Notes: generated by a model not told the origin, from the letters alone. A stretch of 64,000 nucleotides of DNA from a virus (IMGVR_UViG_3300050159_000048); one strand, 5' to 3'; positions 42,372-58,077 are shown, counted from the first letter of the stretch. Numbers and translations: made by a program.

Positions 42372-43161
42372 CAACATCCATTAGGGTTTGCAGATAATAC
42401 AACACTTCCCAGATGTTAGGAACCAGGCGCTGCCTGTCGTATTCCATATATGGAGTGGAGAAGGCTTCAATCACCTTCTTCACTTCGGCTGCCTTGGAAT
42501 CATCATACCAATAGAACTTGACAATATCAAACTTGTCGCGTTCCCACCACTCCTTTAGTGCTCCAAGCCCCATTGGCTCAACGCCAATAAGCACGACGTT
42601 TTGAGGGGTGCCCTGTTCGTGTACCAAGTACATGACTTGCGTTCGAGCAATCTCTTTCTTTGCTTCTACGATAGCAGCTTGGCGGTTACCCAGCCAATAG
42701 CTCCAGCCCCGCCACTCTTTATACACCAAATCTGGTCGAGCGGGAAGATCGTCAGGCAGATTCCCTGGCATGCGAGCCCAAACCAGCCACTCGTTCATGG
42801 TCTGGAGCTTTAGTTTGTGCACGTACTGGATCGCCTCAATCATTGGGCGCCAAGAGATAGTTGACCGCTTGTTAAACTCGTTGTTTGTGCCTAAGAAGTC
42901 ATTCCAAGACACCCACTCCTTCGTGTATACACGGTACGGAAATTTGGGTATAGTTTTTGGCTTCTCACGCTCCCACCATTCCTGAAACTTACCGCGCGAC
43001 GGCAGCATTTGCTCCCGCATGAACGTACGAGCCTCATCCCACGGAAGGTAGTTCGTGTTGCGACGCCCTGATACCTTTGGTTTGGTCTTCTCTGCAATGC
43101 GAGCGTCGATTTCCTCGTCCGTCAACTCGTCTTCAGGCACGTACTTTGCTGTATCGTTCAT
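42310..43161 (-). CDS. protein with two integrase-repeat-unit-like repeats
   Basis: YLPW.EAR.F...W.EW...P..IP..P...Y..EW.SW.DFLG repeated twice. Confidence 0.65.
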   Translation of the reverse strand: MNDTAKYVPEDELTDEEIDARIAEKTKPKVSGRRNTNYLPWDEARTFMREQMLPSRGKFQEWWEREKPKTIPKFPYRVYTKEWVSWNDFLGTNNEFNKRSTISWRPMIEAIQYVHKLKLQTMNEWLVWARMPGNLPDDLPARPDLVYKEWRGWSYWLGNRQAAIVEAKKEIARTQVMYLVHEQGTPQNVVLIGVEPMGLGALKEWWERDKFDIVKFYWYDDSKAAEVKKVIEAFSTPYMEYDRQRLVPNIWEVLYYLQTLMDVVTREQMIATPSRSTLELQRV

Positions 43162-43747
43162 TCACTTTATCCCAGTTAACAACATTCCACCACTTGTCAA
43201 TGTATCCAGCACGGTCAGCAGGATACTGGAGGTAGTGCGCGTGCTCCCACAGATCACAAGCAAGGAGTAGCGTAACCCCGTCTTCTGTGAGTGGGCATCC
43301 ACCATTGGGTGTTGTTTTGATTTGCAGTTCGCCTTTATAAACTACGAGCCAACACCACCCCGAGCCAAATAACCCCGTGGCCTTTTCGACAAATTGTTTC
43401 ACAAATTTGTCATACGATCCGAACTTCTCATCGATCGCTTTCTTCAGCTCGTCTGACGGTTTCCCAACCGAATCCGAAGACGTCATACCATCCCAGTAAA
43501 AAGTATGATTAAATGCTTGAGTGACATTGTTGAAGAACTTGGAATCTACTCGCTTGATCAAATCTTTTGAGATGATATCTTCAAGATCCCACCGCGCATA
43601 CATGGTATCCTTAGCAAGCTCATTTGCCGTATCGTAATACTTGCGAGTATGCTTATCGTAATGATACTCAACAACTTCCTTGGATAGGTGCGGCTCCAGA
43701 GCGTTTTTAGCGTATGGAAGCGCTGGCATTTTGTAGGTCATTGGCAA
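43133..43747 (-). CDS. sodB: Fe/Mn superoxide dismutase
   Basis: LPYAKNALEPH, HYDKH, NHTFYW, FGSGW.WL, DLWEHAHY; TAAATA upstream; metal specificity not determined. Confidence 0.95.
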   Translation of the reverse strand: MPMTYKMPALPYAKNALEPHLSKEVVEYHYDKHTRKYYDTANELAKDTMYARWDLEDIISKDLIKRVDSKFFNNVTQAFNHTFYWDGMTSSDSVGKPSDELKKAIDEKFGSYDKFVKQFVEKATGLFGSGWCWLVVYKGELQIKTTPNGGCPLTEDGVTLLLACDLWEHAHYLQYPADRAGYIDKWWNVVNWDKVNERYSKVRA

Positions 43748-44779: not shown

Positions 44780-45352
44780 TTATAACCGACCCTGCGCAAT
44801 GAGGTGTAACTGAAGGATAATGGTTAACGCATATGAAATAGCGTGGCCCCTCTTGAAAGCGTATGAACCTTCAATCTTTTCGTACAGTTTATCCCGGGTT
44901 TTGGCCTTATTTCGCATGTATTCCGCTAGCAATTTACGCTTACCCGGACGAATAATAGCCAATACGTCGGCAAGTTCTTGTACAGACGTTGGTTTCATCG
45001 TCTGGAGCAAATCTGCATGTTTACCAATGTGAAGCAGTCGTTCGACGACTGCTTGGTCTTGCAGCATGTCCCAGTCTGGCTCCTTCTTACAGAGCGTACG
45101 AAGTTCCGTCTTGTCTTTGACTACATCCAAACAAGATAGATGCAAGAAGTCAATCTTAAAGTAGCCCAAATCAGCTGCCTGGTCGTAAGGGATTGCAGCA
45201 ACGTTGGTGTATGGATCAACAGGGATGCTCTGAAAATAGTGTCCACAGTTGTGTTTGACAAGTTCGCCGTTGCGCACCATAGACGCAGGGATCGCCTGCT
45301 TCATGATGGTGCGTGGGTCGAAAGCGGTAGGGAAGTCGATGTCAATATCCAT
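44780..45352 (-). CDS. DNA polymerase III alpha (DnaE)-like fragment
   Basis: DIDIDF, HNCGHY, GYFKIDFLHL, A..RPGK, YAFKRGHAISYA; TTGACA-18-TACAAT promoter. Confidence 0.8.
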   Translation of the reverse strand: MDIDIDFPTAFDPRTIMKQAIPASMVRNGELVKHNCGHYFQSIPVDPYTNVAAIPYDQAADLGYFKIDFLHLSCLDVVKDKTELRTLCKKEPDWDMLQDQAVVERLLHIGKHADLLQTMKPTSVQELADVLAIIRPGKRKLLAEYMRNKAKTRDKLYEKIEGSYAFKRGHAISYALTIILQLHLIAQGRL

Positions 45353-45395: not shown

Positions 45396-46691
45396 TTAAA
45401 AGGTTTCAGCCTTGATGCGGCGCCAGCCGTGTGTACCGTACACATACACATAATCACCGTCGGCAATCGTGTCGCCGATGTTACCAGGGGACGATGACGA
45501 CATTGGTACAGCTCGTGGCATCATAGGAGCAGAGAATACAAACTCCGTCCACCGGTAATCCGTCGCATACGAACCCTTACCATACTGACCTCGGAACGTG
45601 AATCCTCGACCAGCAAAGTACGACTCACCAGACCTCGTAGGTACGACCGCAACTGCGTCTGGTTCGCCCGGTAGTTCAAAGGAGAACTTCAGGGGAGAAA
45701 CAGAAGTCACTGTTGCAATCTGGCCAGCGCGACCCGACAAAGATCCACGCGGTTTGTTTGCGATCAATACAGTATCGGACGGCTCCAACATAACACCGAA
45801 CCGGTCACCAACAGTGACTGGTCGTTCTAGTACGGAGCGCCAGCCTGTTCCTGTGTGCTGAACTGCGTGGCCGTCCAACCCTTCCCATTCACCTTGTCCG
45901 TTGCTGGAGACAATGAAGGTAAAGTTGTAGGCGTCGTCACGCTCCATCTCAGGAGGTGTTGATAATTGGTCATCGAACAGGTTCGGGTCATAGATGGGTA
46001 GACGCCAAATCACACCGTTCACGAAACTGTCAACGTACTGCTTATTAACAGCGTGTTGAGCGTGAGTTGCTGGCTCTGACAGCTGCAGGCATTTGAAGGT
46101 TTCTGGGAATACAATTGCTTCGTCGGTACTATCCGCACCCAAGCCAATCCATTCTTCTCCGTCCCACACTCGCATCAACTTGATTGACGTGTCGTACCAC
46201 AGCTGTCCGACTAGTGGTGAAACGGGAGGTTGATCATGTGCGAAGTTCTCCAGCATGAATACTAGATTCTGCTGTACCGCTTCACCCCACGACATCCGTT
46301 TACCGTACGTTGATGACCCCTGCCCGAGAAGCAGAAGTGATGTTGCTGGCTTCGGAACAGAATAAGTTAGGGTTAATGGAGCATGGCCAACAACCTCAAT
46401 ATTGGTGCGTTCAATCTTTTCACGCACAGGAATGATCGTTTTGTCATGCTCAAGCATGCTTTGACCATTCACAGTGTACGCGCCAGCTGTAGTTGGATCA
46501 CCATCAACGTTAAACTCAAACCCGTCAACAAAACGAGCGGTAAAATCACCAGAAATGACGAAGTGGTGCACCCCATCAACTGTGTATAACTTTGTGGGCT
46601 GTGCTGTAGACAGATTGTTCGTGCCGTTTGATTCAAACGGCAGAATGTTAGCCACATCAACGCCAGAAGATAACTTAATAGAATAGCTCAT
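45396..46691 (-). CDS. tail/baseplate-associated structural protein
   Basis: LENFA..PP.SP..GQLWYD, HAVNKQYVD, C-terminal SSPG.IGD...D.DY.YV motif. Confidence 0.7.
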   Translation of the reverse strand: MSYSIKLSSGVDVANILPFESNGTNNLSTAQPTKLYTVDGVHHFVISGDFTARFVDGFEFNVDGDPTTAGAYTVNGQSMLEHDKTIIPVREKIERTNIEVVGHAPLTLTYSVPKPATSLLLLGQGSSTYGKRMSWGEAVQQNLVFMLENFAHDQPPVSPLVGQLWYDTSIKLMRVWDGEEWIGLGADSTDEAIVFPETFKCLQLSEPATHAQHAVNKQYVDSFVNGVIWRLPIYDPNLFDDQLSTPPEMERDDAYNFTFIVSSNGQGEWEGLDGHAVQHTGTGWRSVLERPVTVGDRFGVMLEPSDTVLIANKPRGSLSGRAGQIATVTSVSPLKFSFELPGEPDAVAVVPTRSGESYFAGRGFTFRGQYGKGSYATDYRWTEFVFSAPMMPRAVPMSSSSPGNIGDTIADGDYVYVYGTHGWRRIKAETF

Positions 46692-48505
46692 ACGCCTGGA
46701 TGGATTAGCACCTCAATCAATGTTCCCACTGCTGGTGCGGTCGCGAACACGATCGAGTTAGATGTATCACCAACCGATCCAACTTCTTGGTATGCTAGAG
46801 CGCGTGGTGGTGTGCTGGTGGAAGTTTGTGATTGAAGAGTAGTGATACTGGTGAACAAGTTCGATCCAGAAGACGGTGCTGTGATCACAACAGCGGATGT
46901 CGGACCGTACACGTCGGATGTTAAGTACAACTCTAAGAACGTACGACGCTGCTCCATGGTAACGGAGATCGATAGCGAGGCTGCTGTGAGTGCCGCATCA
47001 ATCAACATAAACAGCTCACCGTATGTTGGTTGTGATGCAATTGATATGGTGACTGGTACAGCAGCCGCACCGTTCAGCGCTACGTCAAAACCGTACACGC
47101 CAGCTGACAACCCGGTTACTCGCGTATCAATTGCTAGCGGGTCAGTGTGGCTGAATTTAGCCGTTGCCACGCCACGCTCAGACATGTACTTCTTATTGCC
47201 GTCAACAAACACTTGCAACCGATTCGATCCAACGTCATAAGTCTCACCCAAGTTGAAAGTTGTTGTAGTACCGTCGCCATCAATTAGCAGACGGTGGACG
47301 CCGCGGTAAAGTTCTGATACACTCTGATCGAGAATCTGAACAGCGGTGTAAAGCGGAATAAGAGGGTAGCCTGGGGTGCTGTCGGCATTAGCTGCAATCA
47401 CACTACGCGCATACGGCACGGTCATGTTGTAAATGACGGAAGATGCTTCGTGGGTGTGAGTAAACGGAGCCATTTGACCCGAAACAACAACGTCAGCCAT
47501 ACCTGTGCGCGAAAGTGTCAGCAAGCCTGTAGCTGAGCTGTATGAACCAGCATCAACCACGCCGTCGCTTGTACCGCCACCACCAATGCCAGAAACAGCT
47601 GTTGAGATTGCTGTATCAACATAAATCTTGTTGGTTGCGTCTGTGTTGGCGGCAGGATCACCAACAGATTGCAGGCGACGATCGCCAAACGACAACGCGC
47701 CTGTACCAGCGCTAACAAAGATGCCTGCGGCAGTGTCTAGCGTCAGAATACCGGTAATGGTGTCACCGGTCTTGAGTACGCGGTCGTTAACCGTTGCAGT
47801 GACGGCGTTAACGTCGGTGGTCAATTGTGAGTCAGATGCTTGACGATCGGAGGTCTCAGTAACCAACGCAGCTTGTACAGCAGCCACTTGTTGGTCAACA
47901 TACGCCTTGTTTGGAACGTCAATGTTTTGCGTTGGGGCGTCAGCGACAGTAATTACTGTGCCAGAACTTGCTACAATTGAACCAGTCGCTAGAGTCACCG
48001 TACCGTTTACCGTACCACCAGACGTACGCAGGTATCGTGCATCACCTGTCTGCATGTTCAAGGCATCGGTTGCCAGTACAGCATCGCCAAGACCGGTGAT
48101 CCGGTTGCCTGTTAGGTTTAGAATACCCGCAAACGAGGTCATCATTGCCACCCAGCCAGTACCGCCCCATACGTACATGCCTTGTGTCGTTGGGTCGCTT
48201 GGGTAGTTTGGATCTACATAGTCAGCGTTCTTGTACCACATCTGACCCTGCATTGGTGACAAGGGGCGAGACTTGTATGCAAAGTTCTCTGTCAAGTACA
48301 CTAAGTTGTGTTGGATCAACTCACCGTAGTCGGTGATGCCTCGGCCGGCCAGTACCAGCGATGAGTTTGATGTGACAGCGGTTGCGCCTGATGCTGAATT
48401 TACGTACAGGGCAGGAGACCACGGCAGTTGGGTGCCGTCAATCTGGAAAGGCTGGACAATGAATGACCCATTCGCAGGGTCTGTGTGCTGAAATACGTAA
48501 CTCAT
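46688..48505 (-). CDS. tail fibre-like structural protein
   Basis: LTENFA..S.PL.P.QGQ.WY, DATNKIYVD, VPNKAYVD, THTH; TAAATA at 48533; GGAG SD. Confidence 0.75.
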   Translation of the reverse strand: MSYVFQHTDPANGSFIVQPFQIDGTQLPWSPALYVNSASGATAVTSNSSLVLAGRGITDYGELIQHNLVYLTENFAYKSRPLSPMQGQMWYKNADYVDPNYPSDPTTQGMYVWGGTGWVAMMTSFAGILNLTGNRITGLGDAVLATDALNMQTGDARYLRTSGGTVNGTVTLATGSIVASSGTVITVADAPTQNIDVPNKAYVDQQVAAVQAALVTETSDRQASDSQLTTDVNAVTATVNDRVLKTGDTITGILTLDTAAGIFVSAGTGALSFGDRRLQSVGDPAANTDATNKIYVDTAISTAVSGIGGGGTSDGVVDAGSYSSATGLLTLSRTGMADVVVSGQMAPFTHTHEASSVIYNMTVPYARSVIAANADSTPGYPLIPLYTAVQILDQSVSELYRGVHRLLIDGDGTTTTFNLGETYDVGSNRLQVFVDGNKKYMSERGVATAKFSHTDPLAIDTRVTGLSAGVYGFDVALNGAAAVPVTISIASQPTYGELFMLIDAALTAASLSISVTMEQRRTFLELYLTSDVYGPTSAVVITAPSSGSNLFTSITTLQSQTSTSTPPRALAYQEVGSVGDTSNSIVFATAPAVGTLIEVLIHPGV

Positions 48506-48554
48506 CTGAGCGAACTCCAAAGATATGTTACGTATTTATGCCCCGGTTAGGCGC

Positions 48555-49838
48555 TCAACTCACCTTTTCAACGTCTCCACCAAATGCCAGCTTGAATGCG
48601 GCCAGCTGAATTGCTCGGTAGTGAGTCTTTTCAATCGCGCAATTAGTATACCACACGTCCTGTCCCAGGTCCAACGGGCATGAACTCTTGCACAACAGAC
48701 GAACCTCACACGATCCGCAATGATCGTCTCGGTTTAGGTTGACACTCTGAATGCGAATGCCTTTGATAAACATCAGGTTTCCGCCGTTATACGACTCGTC
48801 TACGTTTTGACAAGTGCGAACGTTCCCCATCATATCCATAGTGATAAGGCGACTGTCATCAACACCGCAATTCGACTTCAGTAGAGGTTTCTTTTGCGAT
48901 TGCAGTGACCGTGCGTACGGCAGCACTCCCATACCGGTATGAAACAGGTTGTTTGCAAGCAGTGCGCCCTCTCTTGTCTCACCGTACTGTCGGTATTGAT
49001 CCAGATGCGCATCCAAATACCGTGTCAGTATTTCGCGGTACTTCGGGATATCGTCACCTGTGATCACATGCATTGTTGAATTCTCTGTCATCTCCTTGTC
49101 ATATACACGACCGAGTTCGTAACTTAGCTGCTTACGTGGCAGCTGATTACGGTCAAGATAGTCAACAAAGAAGTCGTTAATGCGAAACAGATCGTAATTT
49201 GTGCGGCTAATCACAGGGTTAAAGCTGTACTGCACTTGTTGTGGGCACTCTTCTGCGATCTGCTGAAACACTTCCACCTTTTTGTGAAGAAACTCCTTGC
49301 CACGTAGGGTCTCATGGCCGGGACCGTCGTGAGAGATACCCATCGCAACATTGCCCTTGAGCTGCTTGAAGAAATCAATATGTTTGCGATGTAGTGGCGT
49401 CCCATTGGTGGGGATGTACCACGTAATTCCCTCGCGGTCAAACCTCTCCATTAGTGGAACAATGTCATTCCAATACAAAAGAGTCTCTCCGCCCCACAGC
49501 TCAAACCTCACAAGCTCAGACAAATCCAGATGCCGCTCAATGTTCTTGATCAGGATCGGAGTGACGCCGTTTGCGGCTCGTTCGTTTGGATTACCAATGT
49601 CTTTCTGCATGCAATAACCGCAGCTGTAATTACAGCCTTGACCCAGAGAGATTTTAATCGTTTCTGGTTTCTTGGTTACGTGCAGCGCTCCAAATCGGTC
49701 CTTGAGTTGATCCCACTCCGGCGGCTCAGTAAACGGAGCCGTTAACGGCGTACCATCAACACTATACAGCCCGTTTGTCTTGTTGTCGTAGAGGAATTCT
49801 GTACCAGACGTGGATACTTTGAATTTGGTTGGATTCAT
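48555..49838 (-). CDS. radical SAM/SPASM maturase
   Basis: CNYSCGYC, WGGETL, SPASM cysteines C-G...C-Q...CGSCEVRLLCKSSCP...C; short RRE-like N-terminus. Confidence 0.93.
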   Translation of the reverse strand: MNPTKFKVSTSGTEFLYDNKTNGLYSVDGTPLTAPFTEPPEWDQLKDRFGALHVTKKPETIKISLGQGCNYSCGYCMQKDIGNPNERAANGVTPILIKNIERHLDLSELVRFELWGGETLLYWNDIVPLMERFDREGITWYIPTNGTPLHRKHIDFFKQLKGNVAMGISHDGPGHETLRGKEFLHKKVEVFQQIAEECPQQVQYSFNPVISRTNYDLFRINDFFVDYLDRNQLPRKQLSYELGRVYDKEMTENSTMHVITGDDIPKYREILTRYLDAHLDQYRQYGETREGALLANNLFHTGMGVLPYARSLQSQKKPLLKSNCGVDDSRLITMDMMGNVRTCQNVDESYNGGNLMFIKGIRIQSVNLNRDDHCGSCEVRLLCKSSCPLDLGQDVWYTNCAIEKTHYRAIQLAAFKLAFGGDVEKVS

Positions 49839-50977
49839 GGTTCAGGCTTTGTTATAGTGTACAGAGGAATTACTTGACCTTGCTTCGCTTGATCGCATGT
49901 AGTATCAAACAAACCGTATGGGGTTTCAACCCACCCCTGTTGATTCAGCAGCCTGTATATGCGCGTCCACGGTTTTAGCACCAGATTGGGTACAAAATTG
50001 AAATGTGGGTTTATGGTTACGGATTCTGACACAAATTTGAAGTAGTCGTAATGCTTGTTCTGTGTGGTTATTTCACGCACATATTGTGCGTATAGATCGA
50101 TCTTAGCTTGGAGACCGCGTGAAATGAAATGGTCAACATCATCTAGACTGTCTTTCATGATATCGAACCATGGTGTGCTCTTGCCGGACGTTGCTTGACT
50201 GAGCGTAAGGAAAACAGACGTGTATTGTAGGTACGTTACCTCCGTCAGCACCTGTTTTGGTTCTGAATCCTGAGCAAAAAAGTTGGTTTCTTGATAATCA
50301 ACAGATGCTAAGGATAGTACCTGATTCAATCCCTTGGTGATATCGTCGTGCACACCAACGTGGATATCCTTGCTGTGGGCAAACTCAACTAGTTTTGTAA
50401 CCGGTTCGGATGTTTCGCCACCGATTGTGCGCACAATTACCTTCAGTTTGAGTATTGGTGACCGCGCATGTAGCAGTTCCAATTTGGCAATAATGTCATC
50501 AACGATAGCGCCATTCTTTTTGCTCAGAAACACATCACTAAATGAGATTTCGTACACACTCCTAAAACGCAAGTCGTTCATCATAATCGAGTACTGCTGA
50601 ACAAATGCGTTGTCAGACATTTGCGTAGACACCATGCGGTGAGCGTGACGTACGTAGAATTCAAACAGTGCTGGATGATGATTCTTGAGCAGGTACAAAT
50701 CATCAATCGTGCTTACAGTGTCAAAGAAGTCAAAAAACCGAAGAATCTGACGCTCAGTTGCCTCATCTACCCCCGTTGGAATATACGGAGCAAACTGGTC
50801 ACTGGGTATCCAAGCGTCGCGCAGATAACACATCTGGCACCCCGCTTTGCACATATATCGTGAAAATATTGAGAACACCACCTCTCTGGACATGTTTTCT
50901 AGCGCATCGCCAGCAACAAAGTACTCTTTGAAGTTGTTGCTGGTTAATATCGAAGGTGTTACGTGCCTGTCACTCAT
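49835..50977 (-). CDS. divergent radical SAM protein
   Basis: CKAGCQMC motif; no GGEP and no SPASM cysteines. Confidence 0.7.
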   Translation of the reverse strand: MSDRHVTPSILTSNNFKEYFVAGDALENMSREVVFSIFSRYMCKAGCQMCYLRDAWIPSDQFAPYIPTGVDEATERQILRFFDFFDTVSTIDDLYLLKNHHPALFEFYVRHAHRMVSTQMSDNAFVQQYSIMMNDLRFRSVYEISFSDVFLSKKNGAIVDDIIAKLELLHARSPILKLKVIVRTIGGETSEPVTKLVEFAHSKDIHVGVHDDITKGLNQVLSLASVDYQETNFFAQDSEPKQVLTEVTYLQYTSVFLTLSQATSGKSTPWFDIMKDSLDDVDHFISRGLQAKIDLYAQYVREITTQNKHYDYFKFVSESVTINPHFNFVPNLVLKPWTRIYRLLNQQGWVETPYGLFDTTCDQAKQGQVIPLYTITKPEP

Positions 50978-52050
50978 ATTCCTACCCAGTGCAGTAGATT
51001 AGGTTTTTGCTTTAACTTCTGCGCGTGTTGGATTGCTACCATCATCATCTGGTAGAACTGAACACATTTGTCCGACTTCGGCTCTGTATCAAACATTCCG
51101 TGGAGATACTTCAACCCACATTCAGCCCTCGACGGGCATGTCCGACACACCGGCTTCAACATCGCATCTTCTTCACTCTCAGTTTTGGAGCGAGAGATAC
51201 TCACGGGAGATCGCCAATGTCCAACGGTAGTTTCCAGACGCTTATACTCCAAGAAGTCAAACTCCGGATACAGATATCCATCTGGCGACAGCACGAGTTG
51301 TTTGTGGTCGTCAAAGTAGTGCTTATCAAACGATTGTCCATGACCATCCACAACAACATCCAACCCAACCACATATAGCATCTGGATGAATTTGATAAAT
51401 GCATCAAAGAACTGGGGTAAATCAATCCGATCGATCAGAACATCAAATTTGTCCTTGCCACGAATGTGTCGCAGAGGGATTAGATTCAATCGTTTAACGC
51501 CTCCCTTAAAGCAAACGTCAGTGATTGCCTTAAGGGCTTGTAGGCTGAATACTTTTGGATTATCCAACGGCATTACGTATTGGAACTGAATCCCCTGCAC
51601 GCCATTCGTGTGCATCATCTGTAGCGTCTCAAAAATCTCAAATTTGGATCGATTCAACTCTTGGAACAAAAAGTCGTAACTAATACTGACTTCCAGCCGA
51701 GGCCCCCATTTTTCAAAGAACCATGCATGCTGAAGCATCTGACTACCATTCGTCTGAATGTAGTACGAGAATGTCTTAGCGGGGATCAGCAGCTCCAACT
51801 CGTCCATCACTCGGTCCATGATTTTGACGTATGAGAACGGCTCCCCTCCATGAAACGTGATTAGTGCAGGCGGATTCTCAACGAACCCAGCCTCCTTGAA
51901 GAAGTTCACAATGTCGGGGATGTCGACGGAGGTCATATGCTGACCTCCGATCGAGTCCTTGATGTAGTCTCGATCACAATATGTGCAGTTGAAGTTGCAC
52001 ACATTACCGAGATAAATCGTTACGCTGTTACATCCGGCTAGGGCGCTCAT
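50974..52050 (-). CDS. radical SAM protein with C-terminal Cys cluster
   Basis: CNFNCTYC, HGGEPF, QTNG, CRTCPSRAEC...C; start at coupled ATG 52050 (or 52077). Confidence 0.92.
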   Translation of the reverse strand: MSALAGCNSVTIYLGNVCNFNCTYCDRDYIKDSIGGQHMTSVDIPDIVNFFKEAGFVENPPALITFHGGEPFSYVKIMDRVMDELELLIPAKTFSYYIQTNGSQMLQHAWFFEKWGPRLEVSISYDFLFQELNRSKFEIFETLQMMHTNGVQGIQFQYVMPLDNPKVFSLQALKAITDVCFKGGVKRLNLIPLRHIRGKDKFDVLIDRIDLPQFFDAFIKFIQMLYVVGLDVVVDGHGQSFDKHYFDDHKQLVLSPDGYLYPEFDFLEYKRLETTVGHWRSPVSISRSKTESEEDAMLKPVCRTCPSRAECGLKYLHGMFDTEPKSDKCVQFYQMMMVAIQHAQKLKQKPNLLHWVGI

Positions 52051-52784
52051 ACGATTAGTTGACTCACTTCGTTCCAAAACTGGATGCGGGCGGCGATAGC
52101 TTCGCGTGCAGCAGTTTCTGCTTCCGCCACCTTCACAGGATCATCTCCGCACAACATCTCTACCACGTGTTTCATTGCTGGGCCATGTGAGTCTGTGTCC
52201 ACTTCAACGTGACGTTCGAGGTAGTATTTGAATTTGGGGGCGGACACGCCGTTGATCTCTAGCTGATCGATGAGTTTTGTAAACATGCTAGGAATGACAA
52301 GCTCGCGCCCGTACGCCAAAGCTGCCGCTACTACGTGTGGTTTGGCTGAGGTAGCATGCGCAATCGTTGTGCGGCAAAATGTCCGCGACGGTGTGGGGAT
52401 ATTGCTGAGGGCCATCAACATTGGTGTACCAGCCTTTAGTTGCTGAATGAAGTTCAACACGTTTGTGGTATCAGCACCAATCTCTCGCATCGCATCAATG
52501 TATAGTTCAAAATGACTCAAAATACCAAATGGCGTTTGATCGGTTTCTTCCCCTGTAACAATTTCGTTAATTAGTCGCCCTATTTCAGGTTGCTGAGAGG
52601 GGAGCCACGGTAAACCCGAAGGGGCGACCGTGTGCTGCAAGGACTTAGTCAACAGCATGAAGTCCCACACAGCAAACACGTGGTGTTCCATCAACACCTT
52701 AACACCGTTGATTGACACGTCAACGGAGAAGATTGGATGGTTGTTCAGTTCGTATGTTAGCTGAGAAACGGAAGGTGTTGTCAT
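52047..52784 (-). CDS. DUF3050 heme-oxygenase-like (PqqC/CADD fold) diiron oxidase
   Basis: HHVFAVWDFM, RLINEIV.GEETD, SHFELY..AM, GRE..IP.MF, YLERHVEVD.DSH. Confidence 0.88.
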   Translation of the reverse strand: MTTPSVSQLTYELNNHPIFSVDVSINGVKVLMEHHVFAVWDFMLLTKSLQHTVAPSGLPWLPSQQPEIGRLINEIVTGEETDQTPFGILSHFELYIDAMREIGADTTNVLNFIQQLKAGTPMLMALSNIPTPSRTFCRTTIAHATSAKPHVVAAALAYGRELVIPSMFTKLIDQLEINGVSAPKFKYYLERHVEVDTDSHGPAMKHVVEMLCGDDPVKVAEAETAAREAIAARIQFWNEVSQLIV

Positions 52785-54496
52785 AGTTTCACGATTTTGT
52801 GTGGTTTGTTGCCGTCTGCTTTGTTCAAAACTAGCATGTGGATCAGCGTAAGATAAAACACTCGTTTGTTGATGTCGTCAATCGTTTGATTGCTGCTTGC
52901 TTGACTTGGGTGGCCAGCGCGAGCCTGCCAGCGCTCGTAGAACGTCTTGACGTCCAAGGGATCGTCGGAGCCAACGTACGGCACAAAACTTTCTGCTTCA
53001 GGCAAACTTGTCTCATTCGACTCAACCATCGTCCAAAACACACCAAGTGTTTCCTGATAGTCGGGAAGATCATTCACCATAGCACTGACACGCTCAGAAG
53101 TGATGTGCTGGCCGGTGATGTGCTTATACATCAAGTGGACAATTGCCTTTGCGAACGCCTTTTGCTCTCCCATTTCGTTAACAGCTGTCCTCAGCTCGTT
53201 GTACTTCTGGATGAACACCTTATGGACAATATCGTCCTGCAAAGCAAGGAACAGACGGACGATGTTCTGACACATATCATCAGGACGAAACAGTTGTCCA
53301 GTGCCTGTATCGGTGTTACCAGCTGGGCATTGGTAGCAGAATCCGCGCAAGTCGCAGGTCTTGCATTGTTCTTCCTTGATAAACATCTCTTCGTATGCGG
53401 TCTGGAAGTTGTGATAGCGATCAACGTACACCAAATTATGCAGAATGTTGCCAAGCATTGTGTGCGGAACGGCTGTTTTCTGGTTGGTAAAGAAGTAGCA
53501 GCCAGAATAGTCGCCAGTTGCATCAACTGCGATCATATCAGAGCCAACCATGCAGTTATTGCCTTCTTTCTGGCCAACACCTTCACTGAATTGGATTTCA
53601 AATCCGGGTAGTGTCTGGAGCAGATGGACAATTGTCTTGTGCAAATTATCCCATTCGGAGGTACTCCACTGGATAAATCCGCCCTTAGAGCTCATCGTCA
53701 ACGGGTGAATAACCATAGTACGCAGGCCTTTCGCGTACAACGTCGTTGCCAGTTCTTCCAAGTACCGGGCATTTTCCACCGCAATAGTGCAGCGAACGCT
53801 GACCATATGATTGTTTTTGTGGAACTCTGGGATCAAGCCAACCATTTCAACAATGCGGTTGATTTTCTCCTGTCCAATTTCGCGGTGATCAACGTCTGCG
53901 CGCAGAGTATCCAGACTGATCGACATACACGTAAACTTATGGGAGAAGTACTCTGCAATGAATTCTGGAGTTAGCAGCAGACCATTGGTAATCATACCAA
54001 TATTCTGCCTATTCGTGTTTTGACGCAGGTCTTCTGCATACTGGCGGAGAAATTGCAGAATTAACTTCTTGTGGATCAGTGGTTCGCCGCCAAAAAATTG
54101 AAACAGTTTCCCGTCATGCTTATTCGCATTTAGTTGGAAGTCATACACTTGTTTCAGCGTCTCGGGCGTGAACCGGCCGTAGTCGTGGCTATGTTGTTCA
54201 TAGCAGTATGAACACGACAGGTTACAAGCGTTTGTAAGGATCAGGTTGACGTGCCGCAGGTCCTTAAATAGATGCGGCACGTGTTCGAGCTTTGCGACTC
54301 GCTCGGCTGGGCCCGGAGCAACCAAGTACTCTGTTAGTTCCTTCTCATGGCCGTCTGGCGTGACAATCGTCTTAATGTTGGTAGCGATTGTACCGTCGGT
54401 ATTGAGGTAGACAGACGGCTTATGAGCATCAAAGCGCTTGTATTGAGCGTCTGTGTATGTCTTTTTGGGATAGAACTTGATTACGCCTGTTTTCAT
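52781..54496 (-). CDS. radical SAM/SPASM peptide maturase with N- and C-terminal extensions
   Basis: CNLSCSYC, FFGGEPL, C.VG..MIAVD..G..SGC, CKTCDLRGFCYQCPA...C. Confidence 0.95.
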   Translation of the reverse strand: MKTGVIKFYPKKTYTDAQYKRFDAHKPSVYLNTDGTIATNIKTIVTPDGHEKELTEYLVAPGPAERVAKLEHVPHLFKDLRHVNLILTNACNLSCSYCYEQHSHDYGRFTPETLKQVYDFQLNANKHDGKLFQFFGGEPLIHKKLILQFLRQYAEDLRQNTNRQNIGMITNGLLLTPEFIAEYFSHKFTCMSISLDTLRADVDHREIGQEKINRIVEMVGLIPEFHKNNHMVSVRCTIAVENARYLEELATTLYAKGLRTMVIHPLTMSSKGGFIQWSTSEWDNLHKTIVHLLQTLPGFEIQFSEGVGQKEGNNCMVGSDMIAVDATGDYSGCYFFTNQKTAVPHTMLGNILHNLVYVDRYHNFQTAYEEMFIKEEQCKTCDLRGFCYQCPAGNTDTGTGQLFRPDDMCQNIVRLFLALQDDIVHKVFIQKYNELRTAVNEMGEQKAFAKAIVHLMYKHITGQHITSERVSAMVNDLPDYQETLGVFWTMVESNETSLPEAESFVPYVGSDDPLDVKTFYERWQARAGHPSQASSNQTIDDINKRVFYLTLIHMLVLNKADGNKPHKIVKL

Positions 54497-55416
54497 AATG
54501 GTACTATGATGTATGTGAATGATGGGTGTTCGTTATAAACTGGTGATCCGATGAAGCCACCAACGTCGTGTGTAATCGTCAATACGCCTATTGTGCCCTT
54601 GCATGGGGTTTGAACTACAAACTTCCCACCCTGTTGCACTACATCAACATTGGAAACCACTTCCCAAGTATCGGTCTGGATATGTGGGTCCAAGTCCGAA
54701 GCTTTAATTGGAGAATATCGCGGATTTAGTAGGTTGATCTCGAAGCTTGACCCAGATACCGCTATGATTCCAGACTGCACTGCCGTCACATTAGCTGAAA
54801 ACCAGGGATCATACAACGCGTGCTTAAAGGTCTCATTGCCTGCGACACGCACCCAAGTGCATTGGCGTTCAATATCAACAAAATCAAAGCCGTCTGTAAC
54901 TCGCACCAAGTCACTGTTGAGGAACATAACGTAGACGGGTAAATGCCCCACTCGAACAAAGGTGGCCAGCGGAACGAGCCTCACACGAGGACCATTATCA
55001 GTTGAGTGAACCGCACCGTTGCGCACGTTCACGATTTGACCATCTTGTTGGCGAGCATATAGGCCCATCGACGGCAGGATCGCAGATTCGTGGATTTGCG
55101 GCAGATTCGTGACTGTTCCTACAAACACGCTCTCATACACACCCGAATCTAAAGCATCCATTGCGGCATGTGCGTAGATTGGAGCCATCATGGATGGCAA
55201 CATCTCTTGGGAGTCTGGATTGATCAAAAAGTGAGCAAAGCTAAAAGCATCTGTGGCATTCATTCGTTGGTCACGAATCATGCGTAAGCCTGGCTTGAAG
55301 TGTGAGAAAAACTCCAATACAAGACTATCCGGCAACGTATCCACGTTCGATAGTTCTTGCATGGTAGCAAACCCTGAGGGACGTTGTCCCTCATCCATCA
55401 CTAACATATAACGCAT
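54493..55416 (-). CDS. orphan protein of the maturase operon
   Basis: coupled to the rSAM gene by a 4-nt overlap; no motif recognised. Confidence 0.8.
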   Translation of the reverse strand: MRYMLVMDEGQRPSGFATMQELSNVDTLPDSLVLEFFSHFKPGLRMIRDQRMNATDAFSFAHFLINPDSQEMLPSMMAPIYAHAAMDALDSGVYESVFVGTVTNLPQIHESAILPSMGLYARQQDGQIVNVRNGAVHSTDNGPRVRLVPLATFVRVGHLPVYVMFLNSDLVRVTDGFDFVDIERQCTWVRVAGNETFKHALYDPWFSANVTAVQSGIIAVSGSSFEINLLNPRYSPIKASDLDPHIQTDTWEVVSNVDVVQQGGKFVVQTPCKGTIGVLTITHDVGGFIGSPVYNEHPSFTYIIVPL

Positions 55417-55422
55417 ATGAAA

Positions 55423-55629
55423 TTACAGAATGCCGCGAGAGCAGTTGCAATTACAATTGCAGTTGCAAGCTGTACTGTAGTCGTCGTAGAAGATGTGGGT
55501 GTGGGATACGAGTTCGTTCAGGATCGTCAGCATGTCCTGGAACACTTGTGCTTGCACAGGATTGTCGGCTGATTGTGCAGCTGGCAGCGTTTGTACAGCG
55601 GTCTTGGTGGAAAGGTTGTCGGTTGTCAT
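55423..55629 (-). CDS. Cys-rich RiPP-like precursor peptide (core CNCNCNCNCSRGIL)
   Basis: GGAG SD; 68 aa; five Cys in CxC repeat with mixed synonymous codons; directly upstream of four rSAM genes. Confidence 0.85.
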   Translation of the reverse strand: MTTDNLSTKTAVQTLPAAQSADNPVQAQVFQDMLTILNELVSHTHIFYDDYSTACNCNCNCNCSRGIL

Positions 55630-55679
55630 ATGTTGGCTCCAATCTTGAGTTTACGATGGGTTAAGCATAAAGTCAAGCG

Positions 55680-56564
55680 TTACGGTGCTTCGTAGTGCGA
55701 CAACCAGAGAGGTAACACATACGTTGCAGTTGCAACTACGGCTCCTGTCCCAGCGCTTCGAATTTGCACAGCAATCGTTACACTAGAAAAGATGTCAGAT
55801 AGGCCGCCTGGGGGCCATGTGGCTGCTATTCCCACCACTCGAGTCGTCCCCAGGTTGTACCACGTAGACGGTGACATGTTGCCAGCAATCCAGTTAAAGG
55901 TCCCAGATTGCGCAGAAACTGTATACATTACATCATATGCACCCGAGGTGGCTGAATCAACTGGATTCATGTTAATCCATTGTCCACTACTAACAGCTTC
56001 TGATATTCCCGTAGTAGATCCGTAGTATCCGTATGTGTAGTACCACACTAAATTACCATCACTCTGGAATTGTAGATACGTATAACCATCAGCATCGTTG
56101 GCTGTACCGTAGTTAAACGTACGGCTGGATAATGCCACAGAGATGTCGGTAGCGCCTTTGGTGTCATCAACGGTGTGGTTGTGCGACAGCATACCGTTCA
56201 CAAAACCACGAATGTAGTTGATGTCACCGTGATCGATCGGTTCGTCCGCATTAAATGCAATATTGGTAGCTGCATTCCACGCTGGGGACGGGCCGCTGGA
56301 AGTCTTCGTCACATCTTGACCTGTAGTACCGTAAGTAGTTACGTTACCAAATGTGTCAATACCCTGCCTATCCGCTACCGTGTGGTTGTGGCTAGCCATT
56401 GGGTTAATGATGTTTGGAATGAACGAATGCATATCACTAGCCAAAATTGGCTTGTTTGTTTGCATCGATGCCTTGAGGTTGGTAATAGTAGTTTGGATCC
56501 CGGATATTGTGTATCCGGGAGACAGGTTACTTACACCAGATGATGTTACGTTACGCTGTGCCAT
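55680..56564 (-). CDS. tail fibre/adhesin-like protein with two SHNH repeats
   Basis: two P-x17/18-SHNH repeats; beta-rich C-terminal domain. Confidence 0.7.
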   Translation of the reverse strand: MAQRNVTSSGVSNLSPGYTISGIQTTITNLKASMQTNKPILASDMHSFIPNIINPMASHNHTVADRQGIDTFGNVTTYGTTGQDVTKTSSGPSPAWNAATNIAFNADEPIDHGDINYIRGFVNGMLSHNHTVDDTKGATDISVALSSRTFNYGTANDADGYTYLQFQSDGNLVWYYTYGYYGSTTGISEAVSSGQWINMNPVDSATSGAYDVMYTVSAQSGTFNWIAGNMSPSTWYNLGTTRVVGIAATWPPGGLSDIFSSVTIAVQIRSAGTGAVVATATYVLPLWLSHYEAP

Positions 56565-56575
56565 AGGTTAACGCC

Positions 56576-58027
56576 TTATGAATACACAGCTGGGAACACT
56601 TGCCTCCAGCCGCCACCAGGTGGGTACGCGTTTGCAGGGCCACCAGTACCGGACGTAGCTGCCATGTAGATGCGGCCGTAAGCAATAGCAATGTCGCCAG
56701 CTTTGTATGTACCAGAACCGGAATAGATTACTGCAGTACCAGTACTACCAGCCACAGCTGCTGCAATTGCGCTGTTCATCTGACCGAGGTTAACAGCGTC
56801 ATTTGCAGTCGAGCCCGCCGTCACGTTACGAATTTGTGCACCAACCTGAAGCTGACCAGCAATTGTCAGATTACCGTTGGTGTCAATATACAGTGGACGG
56901 TTCGGTGTGTTAGACGTACGACCAGGGCCGCCTGAACCAATAAACATGCGGTTGCTGGAGTCGATACCCATCACCCAACCAATTTGGCCAGCGCGTGTCA
57001 TACCGTAGTAGCCGTAGTTATTGGTGTCAGCAGGCATGGTGACAGAATCAAAACCGTACGGATCATCAGCCACACCAGACGGATATGCGGAGATACCGCC
57101 GCGGGCGTGGAGTACGGAATTCGACAGAATTGTACCGGTTGTAGTGATCGTGCTCTGCACTGTCAGAGCACCTGTTAGCGTACCACCTGACAAAGGTAGG
57201 TAAGATCCGCTACCAGCACCAGATACTGCCGTGTCCACATATGTTTTGGTAGCCGCATCAGCACCTGCGACAGGAGCGCCGAGGTTTGAGATGCGGTTGG
57301 TATTCATGTCGATGATACCAGATGCCTGCGACGAACTAGCGCCTGTTGGGCCGAGAATCTCTTGCCATGCAGAACCAGTGTACACAGACAAGTTGCCTGT
57401 GGATTCGTTGTACCACAGCATACCCACCTGAGGTGCGCCCGGAGCCGTGCCAGTGGACACGAAAGTTGTCACTGGAGATGACCAACCCTCTGGCGACGCT
57501 TGATCAAAAACATGCACAACCATTCGGGGGATTACTGAAGCAGTTGGAGCAGCCGTTCCTGTGAAGTACGAACGCTTAATGAACGCTTCCGGCTCATACT
57601 TACCGAGACTGTAGTAACCCCACAGAGAAGTGCCGTCATACCAGTATTGACCAGTGACTGGAGAGGTCGGTTGTGTTGTAGCTACAACACCGCTACCGTT
57701 CAACAGCTTCCATTTGTTTGCAGCTGTTTCGGTAAGGTCATAGTAGTACCAGCCCTGCGAAGTGCCGGCGGTAGTGTTGTGGAAGTATAGCTTGCGTTCA
57801 CACCACATCTGTCCGCTGATTGCCACTGTTGGTGGGGAGGCAGATGCGAAGTTTTCTGTCAACCGGACGAAGTTCTCATTGACAGCTTCACCCCACTCAA
57901 CCGCACCGCGACCGAACAAACGTAGTGATGTTCCCTGAATGGAACTGTTAGGGCCGCTTTGACTTCCTGGTGGAATATCAAATGAGGTTGCTAGCGGATC
58001 TGAGTAATTGATTGTATAGACAGCCAT
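56576..58027 (-). CDS. tail fibre-like structural protein
   Basis: LTENFAS.SPP, GQYWYD, DAATKTYVD, YLPLSGGTLTG, DAVNLGQM; TATAAATA at 58061. Confidence 0.8.
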   Translation of the reverse strand: MAVYTINYSDPLATSFDIPPGSQSGPNSSIQGTSLRLFGRGAVEWGEAVNENFVRLTENFASASPPTVAISGQMWCERKLYFHNTTAGTSQGWYYYDLTETAANKWKLLNGSGVVATTQPTSPVTGQYWYDGTSLWGYYSLGKYEPEAFIKRSYFTGTAAPTASVIPRMVVHVFDQASPEGWSSPVTTFVSTGTAPGAPQVGMLWYNESTGNLSVYTGSAWQEILGPTGASSSQASGIIDMNTNRISNLGAPVAGADAATKTYVDTAVSGAGSGSYLPLSGGTLTGALTVQSTITTTGTILSNSVLHARGGISAYPSGVADDPYGFDSVTMPADTNNYGYYGMTRAGQIGWVMGIDSSNRMFIGSGGPGRTSNTPNRPLYIDTNGNLTIAGQLQVGAQIRNVTAGSTANDAVNLGQMNSAIAAAVAGSTGTAVIYSGSGTYKAGDIAIAYGRIYMAATSGTGGPANAYPPGGGWRQVFPAVYS

Positions 58028-58028
58028 G

Positions 58029-58077
58029 TTGGTTGCATCCTATAAAGGTACGAGATTACGTATTTATAGGTGCAACC
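58029..58077 (-). promoter_or_regulatory. T4-type late promoter TATAAATA in an SD-sequestering hairpin
   Basis: GGTTGCA-CCTATAAA ... TTTATAGG-A-TGCAACC; SD AGGA lies in the 3' arm. Confidence 0.75.

Follow-up and report, generated by a model that had tools for sequence, protein, structure and literature searches.

A conserved phage cassette pairing radical-SAM enzymes with an alternating-cysteine peptide, and its probable role in modifying a small tail-fibre-associated protein

The stretch of DNA analysed in this study, hereafter the window, comprises 64,000 nucleotides of IMGVR_UViG_3300050159_000048, a 174.5-kb IMG/VR virus record, about 50% complete, that occurs in leaf-litter metagenomes. 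Among cultured phages, RP12 and RP31, phiKZ-related jumbo phages of Ralstonia, stand closest to it (approximately 68% nucleotide identity over the radical-SAM genes). On the minus strand, the window encodes a 68-aa peptide in whose tail every second residue is a cysteine, accompanied by four radical S-adenosylmethionine (SAM) enzymes and a DUF3050 protein. From sequence comparison, we consider with a probability of roughly 60% that these genes belong to a conserved phage module for the post-translational modification of a small tail-fibre-associated protein. Judged by gene order, the conserved unit consists of a protein with two His-x-His modules (double-HxH protein), a protein of about 300 aa, the peptide, enzymes A, B, C and D, and, in some loci, DUF3050. 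In the window, these members are as follows:

55680..56564, minus strand: 294-aa protein carrying a pair of His-x-His modules (SHNHTV..D twice), to which a beta-rich domain is added at the C-terminus.
55423..55629, minus strand: 68-aa putative substrate peptide, with GGAG 7 nt upstream of the ATG; variable N-terminus, His-x-His module at about residues 22-46, invariant FYDDYSTA, five alternating cysteines at 55-63, and C-terminal SRGIL.
54493..55416, minus strand: 307-aa protein, fold probably beta-rich, of a cassette family placed ahead of the peptide or behind it and sometimes duplicated.
52781..54496, minus strand: enzyme A, 571 aa, with CX3CX2C, a seven-cysteine SPASM pattern, and N-terminal and C-terminal extensions of ~80 and ~150 aa.
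52047..52784, minus strand: DUF3050 protein (heme-oxygenase-like, MgoB/PvfA family), 245 aa, an optional cassette member.
50974..52050, minus strand: enzyme B, 358 aa from the ATG at 52050, with CX3CX2C and a reduced C-terminal cysteine cluster (CX2CX5C ... C).
49835..50977, minus strand: enzyme C, 380 aa, with a very divergent predicted radical-SAM fold and no auxiliary-cluster cysteines.
48555..49838, minus strand: enzyme D, 427 aa, radical-SAM with a seven-cysteine SPASM pattern.

The open reading frames (ORFs) lie where the initial annotation had placed them, and 4-nt overlaps of the ATGA type join the six genes from the 307-aa gene through D (five joins). For enzyme B the gene itself stands, while the TTG start at 52077 that gave it 367 aa most likely does not; the ATG at 52050 is likelier, since it forms an ATGA overlap with the DUF3050 stop.

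The peptide, whose C-terminus reads CNCNCNCNC-SRGIL, behaves as a real gene with a conserved cysteine tail. Synonymous codons are mixed within the repeat (tgc aac tgc aat tgt aat tgc aac tgc), in agreement with the earlier view that the tail is not a DNA microsatellite, and the pattern TGY-NNN-TGY-NNN-TGY-NNN-TGY has a single site in the 174.5-kb record (none for the reversed-pattern control). Pattern and profile searches found the peptide in 27 viral loci and 49 protein clusters, and a profile search of 1.84 billion proteins yielded 86 representatives at 50% identity. The tail is kept in the 85 unique homologues, which come from uncultured large phages and from Ralstonia phage RP12, where an unannotated 65-aa homologue occupies the 280-bp gap between ORF074 and ORF075. 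A peptide-pattern scan of ~185,000 bacterial and archaeal genomes found no relatives. A tblastn search of the phage collection with the peptide also returned no match even though RP12 encodes a homologue, the likely causes being the low-complexity filter and the short query. Moreover, over a 26-codon block shared with the closest locus (L009), codon changes were 16 synonymous and 3 non-synonymous, and across 12 loci differences numbered 1053 at third positions, 571 at first and 407 at second positions, a codon pattern indicating that the peptide is under purifying selection.

Within the family, the first ~25 residues vary and the remainder is strongly conserved in the order helix, H-x-H, F-Y-D-D-Y, two to three residues, cysteine repeat, (S/T/G)-R-G and two hydrophobic residues. 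Five cysteines are present in 72 of the 85 unique peptides (range 2-6). Among these 72, the first intervening residue (X1) is always N, E or D and the second (X2) always N or Q, whereas 89% carry N, Q or D and 11% Ala at X3, and 54% carry Ala at X4, so that Ala is tolerated at the last two positions only. Thus, in the (CN)4C repeat described by the initial annotation, the cysteines are conserved and asparagine as such is not, the positions between them holding N/D/E/Q or, late in the repeat, Ala. An N-x-x-C motif is present in the peptide three times (N56-C59, N58-C61 and N60-C63). In the five-cysteine peptides, X positions followed by a cysteine at +3 are constrained and the last X, which has none, is not; a ladder of links from residue i to Cys i+3 would predict such a fading of constraint along the repeat. 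As a separate observation, one homologue (L046:1956-2168) carries the degenerate repeat CNCWVNNNC with A-D all downstream, and may represent a decaying substrate or one of altered specificity.

When the window proteins were used as tblastn queries, A, B, C and D followed the peptide in the same order in every locus of sufficient length. In related phages with contigs long enough, the enzymes were never found without the peptide, nor the peptide without enzymes, and this synteny establishes peptide and radical-SAM genes as one conserved unit. The initial annotation had named loss of the cysteine tail in homologues, and enzymes occurring without the peptide, as signs that its unit was wrong; as far as can be checked in silico, the results all fell in favour of the unit. 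About 60% of loci include DUF3050, as a rule after D, once upstream, and in the window between A and B; its homologue RP12 ORF080 has been annotated as MgoB (PMC5468394). One distant locus, L083, encodes a jumbo-type peptide, a double-HxH protein, a ~300-aa protein and D, with no A, B or C within the fetched 7-kb flanks of D, and this weakened an idea we had entertained, namely a tie between the His-x-His module and enzymes A, B and C. Additionally, two distant phages encode a 630-695-aa protein beside the double-HxH and peptide genes (L006:14391-16283, minus strand, and L083:3217-5304); that of L006 matches B12-binding and Radical_SAM domains, and could be a fifth, cobalamin-type radical-SAM partner.

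Four radical-SAM enzymes, as originally proposed, are indeed encoded in the block, C being recognised by fold alone and without auxiliary-cluster cysteines. Against the Radical_SAM model PF04055 (gathering cut-off 29.5 bits), A, B and D scored 60.5, 41.4 and 38.4 bits, respectively. The SPASM pattern C-x(9-15)-G-x4-C, CX2CX5CX3C, C is visible in A and D, with SPASM hidden Markov model scores below cut-off (A, 17.8 vs 21.5 for PF13186; D, 19.8 vs 27 for TIGR04085). Curated maturase models, judged by their equivalog cut-offs, were approached at a distance: the best for A was PapB (NF047865; 110.5 bits, and 38.1 for D, vs 340), followed by QhpD (TIGR03906; A, 80.9 vs 453) and the SCIFF maturase (TIGR03974; A, 66.7 vs 425). 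The model for the anaerobic sulfatase-maturating enzyme (anSME; TIGR03942, cut-off 349) gave 53.4 for A and 40.7 for D, for which it is the second-best curated match, and HxsB/HxsC (TIGR03978, cut-off 370) gave 56.5 for A and 28 for B, the motif here being H-x-H once or twice with no HxS repeat. Weak matches of B and D to viperin-like and MoaA models were further detected.

By sequence, the closest solved structure to A is CteB (5wgg). In the D family, C69, C73, C76, a WGGE motif and six SPASM cysteines are invariant across 24 sequences, and the D model (pLDDT 90) matched CteB (E 3e-11), anSME (E 5e-10, anSMEcpe being second-best), and then SuiB, ChlB, TigE and SkfB, all of the listed matches being peptide- or protein-modifying enzymes. 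CteB and anSME act on cysteines in peptides or proteins. Hence, by curated models and solved structures alike, A and D most closely resemble peptide- or protein-modifying SPASM enzymes, as the initial annotation had supposed. The beta-rich N-terminal ~55 residues of the D model might serve recognition.

Enzyme C is the most divergent. No Pfam match was obtained for any of 18 family members, PF04055 being absent even at E 1, and hhalign of C against the D family aligned the cysteine motif alone (4.6% probability), so that its membership of the superfamily rests on fold. Its model (pLDDT 92) is a partial TIM barrel of the radical-SAM type, in which CX3CX2C follows the first strand; radical-SAM enzymes fill the first 13 places among its structural matches (Z 8.3-10.7; best SuiB 10.7, MoaA 10.6 and ChlB 10.2), and C43, C47 and C50 of the CX3CX2C motif are invariant in the 18 sequences. 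At the level of predicted fold plus this invariant motif, C belongs to the radical-SAM superfamily. The assignment to DUF3050, a heme-oxygenase-like family, was confirmed by a clear PF11251 match (269.2 bits vs gathering 22.2) covering positions 1-233 of the 233-position model. When A was modelled in complex with the peptide, the outcome (score 0.02, mark 0.34, partner pLDDT ~31) gave no indication of binding either way.

Enzyme D is the only one of the four with full-length homologues elsewhere, among them gp30 of the Achromobacter siphophage JWF (26% identity, E 7e-35), originally annotated as anSME, and an enzyme in L040 (E 4e-32). A scan with the D profile gave 582 viral candidates, from which 80 loci were kept, some of them repeats of the same contigs and hence not independent samples. 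An ORF matching (C[NDEQA])>=2 C was found in 51 of the 80 D loci vs 0 of 80 reversed-sequence controls; many of the 29 loci without such an ORF are truncated contigs. D-type enzymes are located in tail modules of four unrelated phage types, T4-like fibre and baseplate modules being among these settings, and the following arrangements were seen:

JWF, L035:4802-6253: tail-fibre-like gp28, after the central fibre gene, with the gp30 enzyme two genes downstream (L035:6959-8323).
L040/L041: long-tail-fibre-like gene (PHROGs, E 4e-31), three tandem 92-109-aa proteins each ending in (NC)n, a 2-oxoglutarate (2OG) oxygenase, and a D-type enzyme.
L075 and similar loci: D-type enzyme after baseplate-hub and fibre-like genes, adjoining Gly-rich proteins with CGAC or CACAC.
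L099 and similar loci: NCNCACNC within ~300-aa proteins, beside a D-type enzyme.
L100 and similar loci: 128-135-aa proteins with alternating-cysteine-rich tails, beside a D-type enzyme.

The JWF fibre-like protein gp28, described as T4 gp36-like in its record, matches Shufflon_N and Hint and carries a 12-residue N/D-Cys repeat, NCNCDCNCNCSC, directly before Hint. The last cysteine of NCNCDCNCNCSC is the first Hint residue, and therefore self-cleavage would leave the repeat as the new C-terminus of the fibre. From these pairings, we infer that D is the enzyme acting on the cysteine repeat. More tentatively, several unrelated tailed-phage lineages could use the radical-SAM/SPASM family to cross-link or otherwise modify cysteine-alternating tips of fibre or fibre-accessory proteins, radical chemistry being part of the maturation of the receptor-binding apparatus and the jumbo-phage cassette its most elaborate form, a generalisation that we regard as possible and would not yet call probable.

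Two details of these D-type loci were recorded. The three small paralogues of L040:3587-4499 (95, 92 and 109 aa) have a common N-terminal half, each ends exactly in (NC)n, and the next gene encodes the 2OG-Fe(II) oxygenase. Gly-rich proteins of 134-148 aa beside D-type genes in baseplate/fibre modules (L075:8445-8849, L082:5644-6078, L090:7495-7902 and L076:4418-4864) carry CGAC, CACAC or DCACACAC near the N-terminus and then poly-Gly, and some proteins with the His-x-His module (P0117 and P0136) contain comparable Gly-rich stretches.

The N-terminal half of the peptide connects it to its non-enzyme partners. In nearly all related loci a ~130-aa double-HxH protein stands upstream of the peptide, and the 294-aa protein is its lengthened counterpart in the window; in that family H57, H59, H126, H128 and D132 are invariant (17 sequences). 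Peptide residues 14-50 align to the second H-x-H module of the double-HxH family (hhalign 96% probability, E 2e-9). Furthermore, the large profile search recovered natural fusions, including proteins of two to three His-x-His modules ending in the cysteine tail, a 256-aa protein composed of the peptide, CNCNCNC, a poly-Pro linker and a 180-aa domain, and His-x-His module proteins with Gly-rich or further domains. The 307-aa protein, labelled an orphan in the initial annotation, belongs instead to a conserved cassette family (hhalign A7 vs A8, 99.9% probability, E 5e-32). No Pfam, PHROG or PDB match was found for the 307-aa protein, and no Pfam or PDB relative for the 294-aa or double-HxH proteins; profiles of the ~300-aa and double-HxH families likewise found nothing among PDB sequences or in Pfam, and Atlas look-ups of the 307-aa and 294-aa proteins gave low-confidence beta-sandwich-like matches only.

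The whole block (45396-58027) is an island among replication genes (clamp-loader-like, MazG-like and a DNA polymerase fragment). Its order on the minus strand is the 483-aa fibre-like gene, the 294-aa gene, the peptide, the 307-aa gene, A, DUF3050, B, C, D, and then two fibre-like paralogues, the flanking genes being:

56576..58027, minus strand: 483-aa fibre-like protein at the head of the block, with weak PHROG matches (virion structural, tail, tail-fibre) and YadA_stalk at E 2e-4.
45396..48520, minus strand: 610-aa and 431-aa fibre-like paralogues, sharing the N-terminal domain of the 483-aa protein.

Blastp among the 483-, 610- and 431-aa proteins gave E values of 4e-11 to 1e-8, and the 610-aa protein matched the JWF gp28 fibre at E 7e-5; tblastn of the 610-aa protein against phages returned no match at 1e-6. 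The placing of the cassette among fibre genes by the initial annotation is thus sustained as regards paralogy and weak fibre/tail matches, and not as a firm fibre identity.

The late promoter proposed upstream of these genes, TATAAATA, was not supported: it occurs twice in the window, a count reached by 8 of 100 shuffles, and the element that is truly shared is the 12-mer ATAAATACGTAA, present in exactly two copies in the 174.5-kb record (58067..58056 and 48532-48543, minus strand), ~10-30 nt upstream of the 483-aa (58027) and 610-aa (48520) fibre-like genes. This 12-mer is a candidate promoter element, or else a candidate remnant of a duplication that included the upstream region. Given its position upstream of fibre-like genes, the peptide and enzymes probably ride on the transcript of the first of these. 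A sigma-70-like site in the 50-bp gap before the peptide (9/12 match) was discarded, as such sites number 13 in the region vs 17.6 in shuffles. The RNA evidence consists of a single 154-nt contig inside the 307-aa gene from one metatranscriptome, leaving the peptide uncovered and with DNA carry-over possible.

In this context, a mechanism can be outlined in which the substrate-enzyme assignment, the thioether chemistry and the virion association are all matters that we infer from sequence. The peptide would have two halves, a His-x-His module homologous to the two of the upstream protein, and a tail in which four to six cysteines are spaced by single N/D/E/Q residues. D would bind the peptide, perhaps assembled with the double-HxH protein via the shared module and with His-x-His possibly metal-bound, and would then abstract hydrogen and form cysteine thioethers (sacti- or ranthionine-like), the register probably running from acceptor N/D/E/Q i to Cys i+3. 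Subsequently A, B and C, with DUF3050 where present, might modify the product further, the invariant FYDDY or the His-x-His partner being possible sites. Together with the double-HxH and ~300-aa proteins, the modified peptide would serve as an accessory part of a fibre-like structure and not as a released product.

Several observations weigh against this modification of a tail-fibre-associated protein. A, B and D reach no curated family cut-off, and formylglycine formation from cysteine, as by anSME, is equally compatible with the fold of D. No Pfam or NCBIfam match to an RRE/PqqD-like domain (RRE, recognition element of RiPPs, that is, peptides made by ribosomes and modified post-translationally), a protease or an exporter was found among the cassette proteins. 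Ala often lies between the cysteines in relatives that have only D, a misfit with the i/i+3 acceptor scheme; hence, the Cys-Asn link of the NxxcB type suggested at first fits the substitution pattern of the peptide family and misfits these Ala-rich relatives. The non-independence of the repeated contigs among the 80 D loci also has to be counted, as does the fact that the fibre identity of the genes flanking the cassette in the window depends on weak matches. The expected co-occurrence of radical-SAM sets with CxC-tailed peptides in other phages was borne out, and adjacency to fibre genes failed in L006, whose cassette adjoins ribonucleotide reductase genes. Finally, the RP31 virion proteome (32 gel-band proteins) contains neither cassette proteins nor the adjacent YomR-like proteins (PMC5468394), an absence that carries little weight, the peptide being unannotated there and too small for those gels.

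The alternative that survives best, although we consider it unlikely, is a true RiPP, in which the His-x-His half would be a leader that is removed and the cross-linked cysteine core would be released to act on the host or competitors, for instance in anti-defence or superinfection exclusion, or through antimicrobial or metal-chelating activity. Radical-SAM RiPP clusters have the same layout, with a short precursor gene adjoining, and directly ahead of, SPASM-type maturases; A is most like ranthipeptide and SCIFF maturases, and both the L006 context and the RP31 proteome would suit a released product. Against this stand the lack of a protease, exporter or RRE in or near any cassette, and the supposed leader itself, which together with the core is the most conserved part of the peptide and copies a module repeated in neighbouring proteins. 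The cysteine repeat, moreover, occurs inside or at the end of proteins of 90-480 aa, including a tail fibre and the protein with the poly-Pro linker and extra domain, and D-type enzymes lie in the tail modules of four unrelated phage types. These features favour a small, modified protein of structural or accessory kind over a RiPP that loses its leader and is released.

The main chemical alternative to thioethers is that D oxidises one or more cysteines to formylglycine, as anSME does, providing aldehydes for covalent attachment or cross-linking in the fibre. To its credit, D has anSMEcpe as its second-best match by structure (E 5e-10) and the anSME model as its second-best among curated models, the last cysteine pair of the peptide stands in C-x-C-x-R, which recalls the sulfatase motif C-x-P/A-x-R, and no N/D/E/Q acceptors are needed, which would accommodate the Ala-rich D-only relatives. 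We nevertheless hold it to be quite improbable, since D lies far under the anSME cut-off (40.7 vs 349 bits), no Arg follows the repeat in the JWF and L040 tails, and the strict N/D/E/Q at X1 and X2 would be left unexplained. Least of all do we expect the peptide to be an unmodified metal-binding element (Fe, Zn, Cu or Fe-S along the trimer axis) beside radical-SAM enzymes whose substrate would be a cofactor, nucleotide or DNA, an idea favoured by alternating cysteines and His-x-His, classic metal-ligand patterns known from metallothioneins and T4 gp37 and gp12, and by the weak viperin-like and MoaA matches of B and D, but opposed by the pairing of D-type enzymes with cysteine-alternating ORFs (51/80 loci vs 0/80 controls) across unrelated phages of differing gene content, by a peptide never found without enzymes, and by the solved structures closest to A and D, which come from enzymes that modify peptides or proteins. 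The peptide could both bind metal and be modified.

Radical-SAM modification of cysteine-rich peptides is familiar from cellular RiPP pathways and a few proteins. The cassette repeats the arrangement of CteB/SCIFF, PapB/freyrasin, NxxcB and QhpD/QhpC, that is, a two-cluster SPASM radical-SAM gene (the SPASM domain being putative in the phage) beside a short cysteine-rich substrate, and among solved structures CteB comes closest to both A and D. As in sacti- and ranthipeptide systems, N/D/E/Q-type residues lie beside the cysteines, with the putative acceptor three residues ahead of the cysteine, as in NxxC. Unlike these and the QhpD systems, scores fall 3-10 times below every curated cut-off, the genes are phage-encoded and absent from ~185,000 cellular genomes, there are four paralogous or divergent radical-SAM genes, cysteine recurs every second residue, RRE, protease and exporter are missing, and the N-terminal half of the substrate is a structural repeat module. 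Placed by sequence, the cassette is a variation on the radical-SAM/SPASM theme of cysteine-peptide modification that lies outside every curated family.

Recently, the SPASM radical-SAM enzyme CrpC of Methanococcus voltae was reported to install ranthionine cross-links on the cysteine-rich protein CrpA (2026; PMC13692751). Likened by description, it follows the same gene-adjacency logic and has as substrate a cysteine-rich protein and not a leader-cleaved peptide; unlike the phage cassette, it belongs to an archaeal cell, has one enzyme and lacks a fibre context. With anSME, the second-best structural match of D, the cassette shares a predicted SPASM-type fold and the putative targeting of cysteine within a protein; it differs in that no sulfatase gene was found in the block by Pfam and PHROG searches, C-x-P/A-x-R is missing in most relatives, and D is far below the model cut-off. 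His-x-His metal sites occur in the T4 fibre proteins gp37 and gp12; the present modules resemble them in having a helix and then His-x-His, repeated in putatively fibre-associated proteins, with no sequence or structure match obtained. The 245-aa protein is a clear DUF3050 member, as are MgoB and PvfA of the Pseudomonas mgo/pvf clusters; unlike these, whose partners are a nonribosomal peptide synthetase and an N-oxygenase, phage DUF3050 accompanies radical-SAM genes, is optional and shifts position.

We know of no phage structural protein that matures by radical-SAM modification. In open-access papers and preprints nothing was found that describes the peptide, the cassette, or any action of radical-SAM enzymes on the fibre proteins of phages, and the RP12 paper lists the cassette enzymes by BLAST name only (PMC5468394). 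If our reading is true, a new class of post-translational chemistry would enter virion assembly, cysteine at every second residue would constitute a new substrate class for SPASM enzymes, and functions would be gained for orphan phage families, namely the peptide, the double-HxH protein, the ~300-aa protein, enzyme C and a DUF3050 member. Simpler two-gene models are offered by JWF gp28/gp30, by the L040 small proteins with their enzyme, and by L083, and RP12, RP31 and JWF are cultured phages. A question would also be raised as to how oxygen-sensitive Fe-S enzymes could serve phages of aerobic soil and leaf-litter hosts.

Beyond the block, two further ORFs were observed on the minus strand. A 204-aa ORF (43133-43747), close to the cluster of oxygen-sensitive Fe-S enzymes, appears by eye to carry Fe/Mn superoxide dismutase-like motifs and has no PHROG match. 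A 190-aa ORF (44780-45352) matches just part of the DNA polymerase family phrog_11778 (E 4e-61), so that the polymerase appears to be split.

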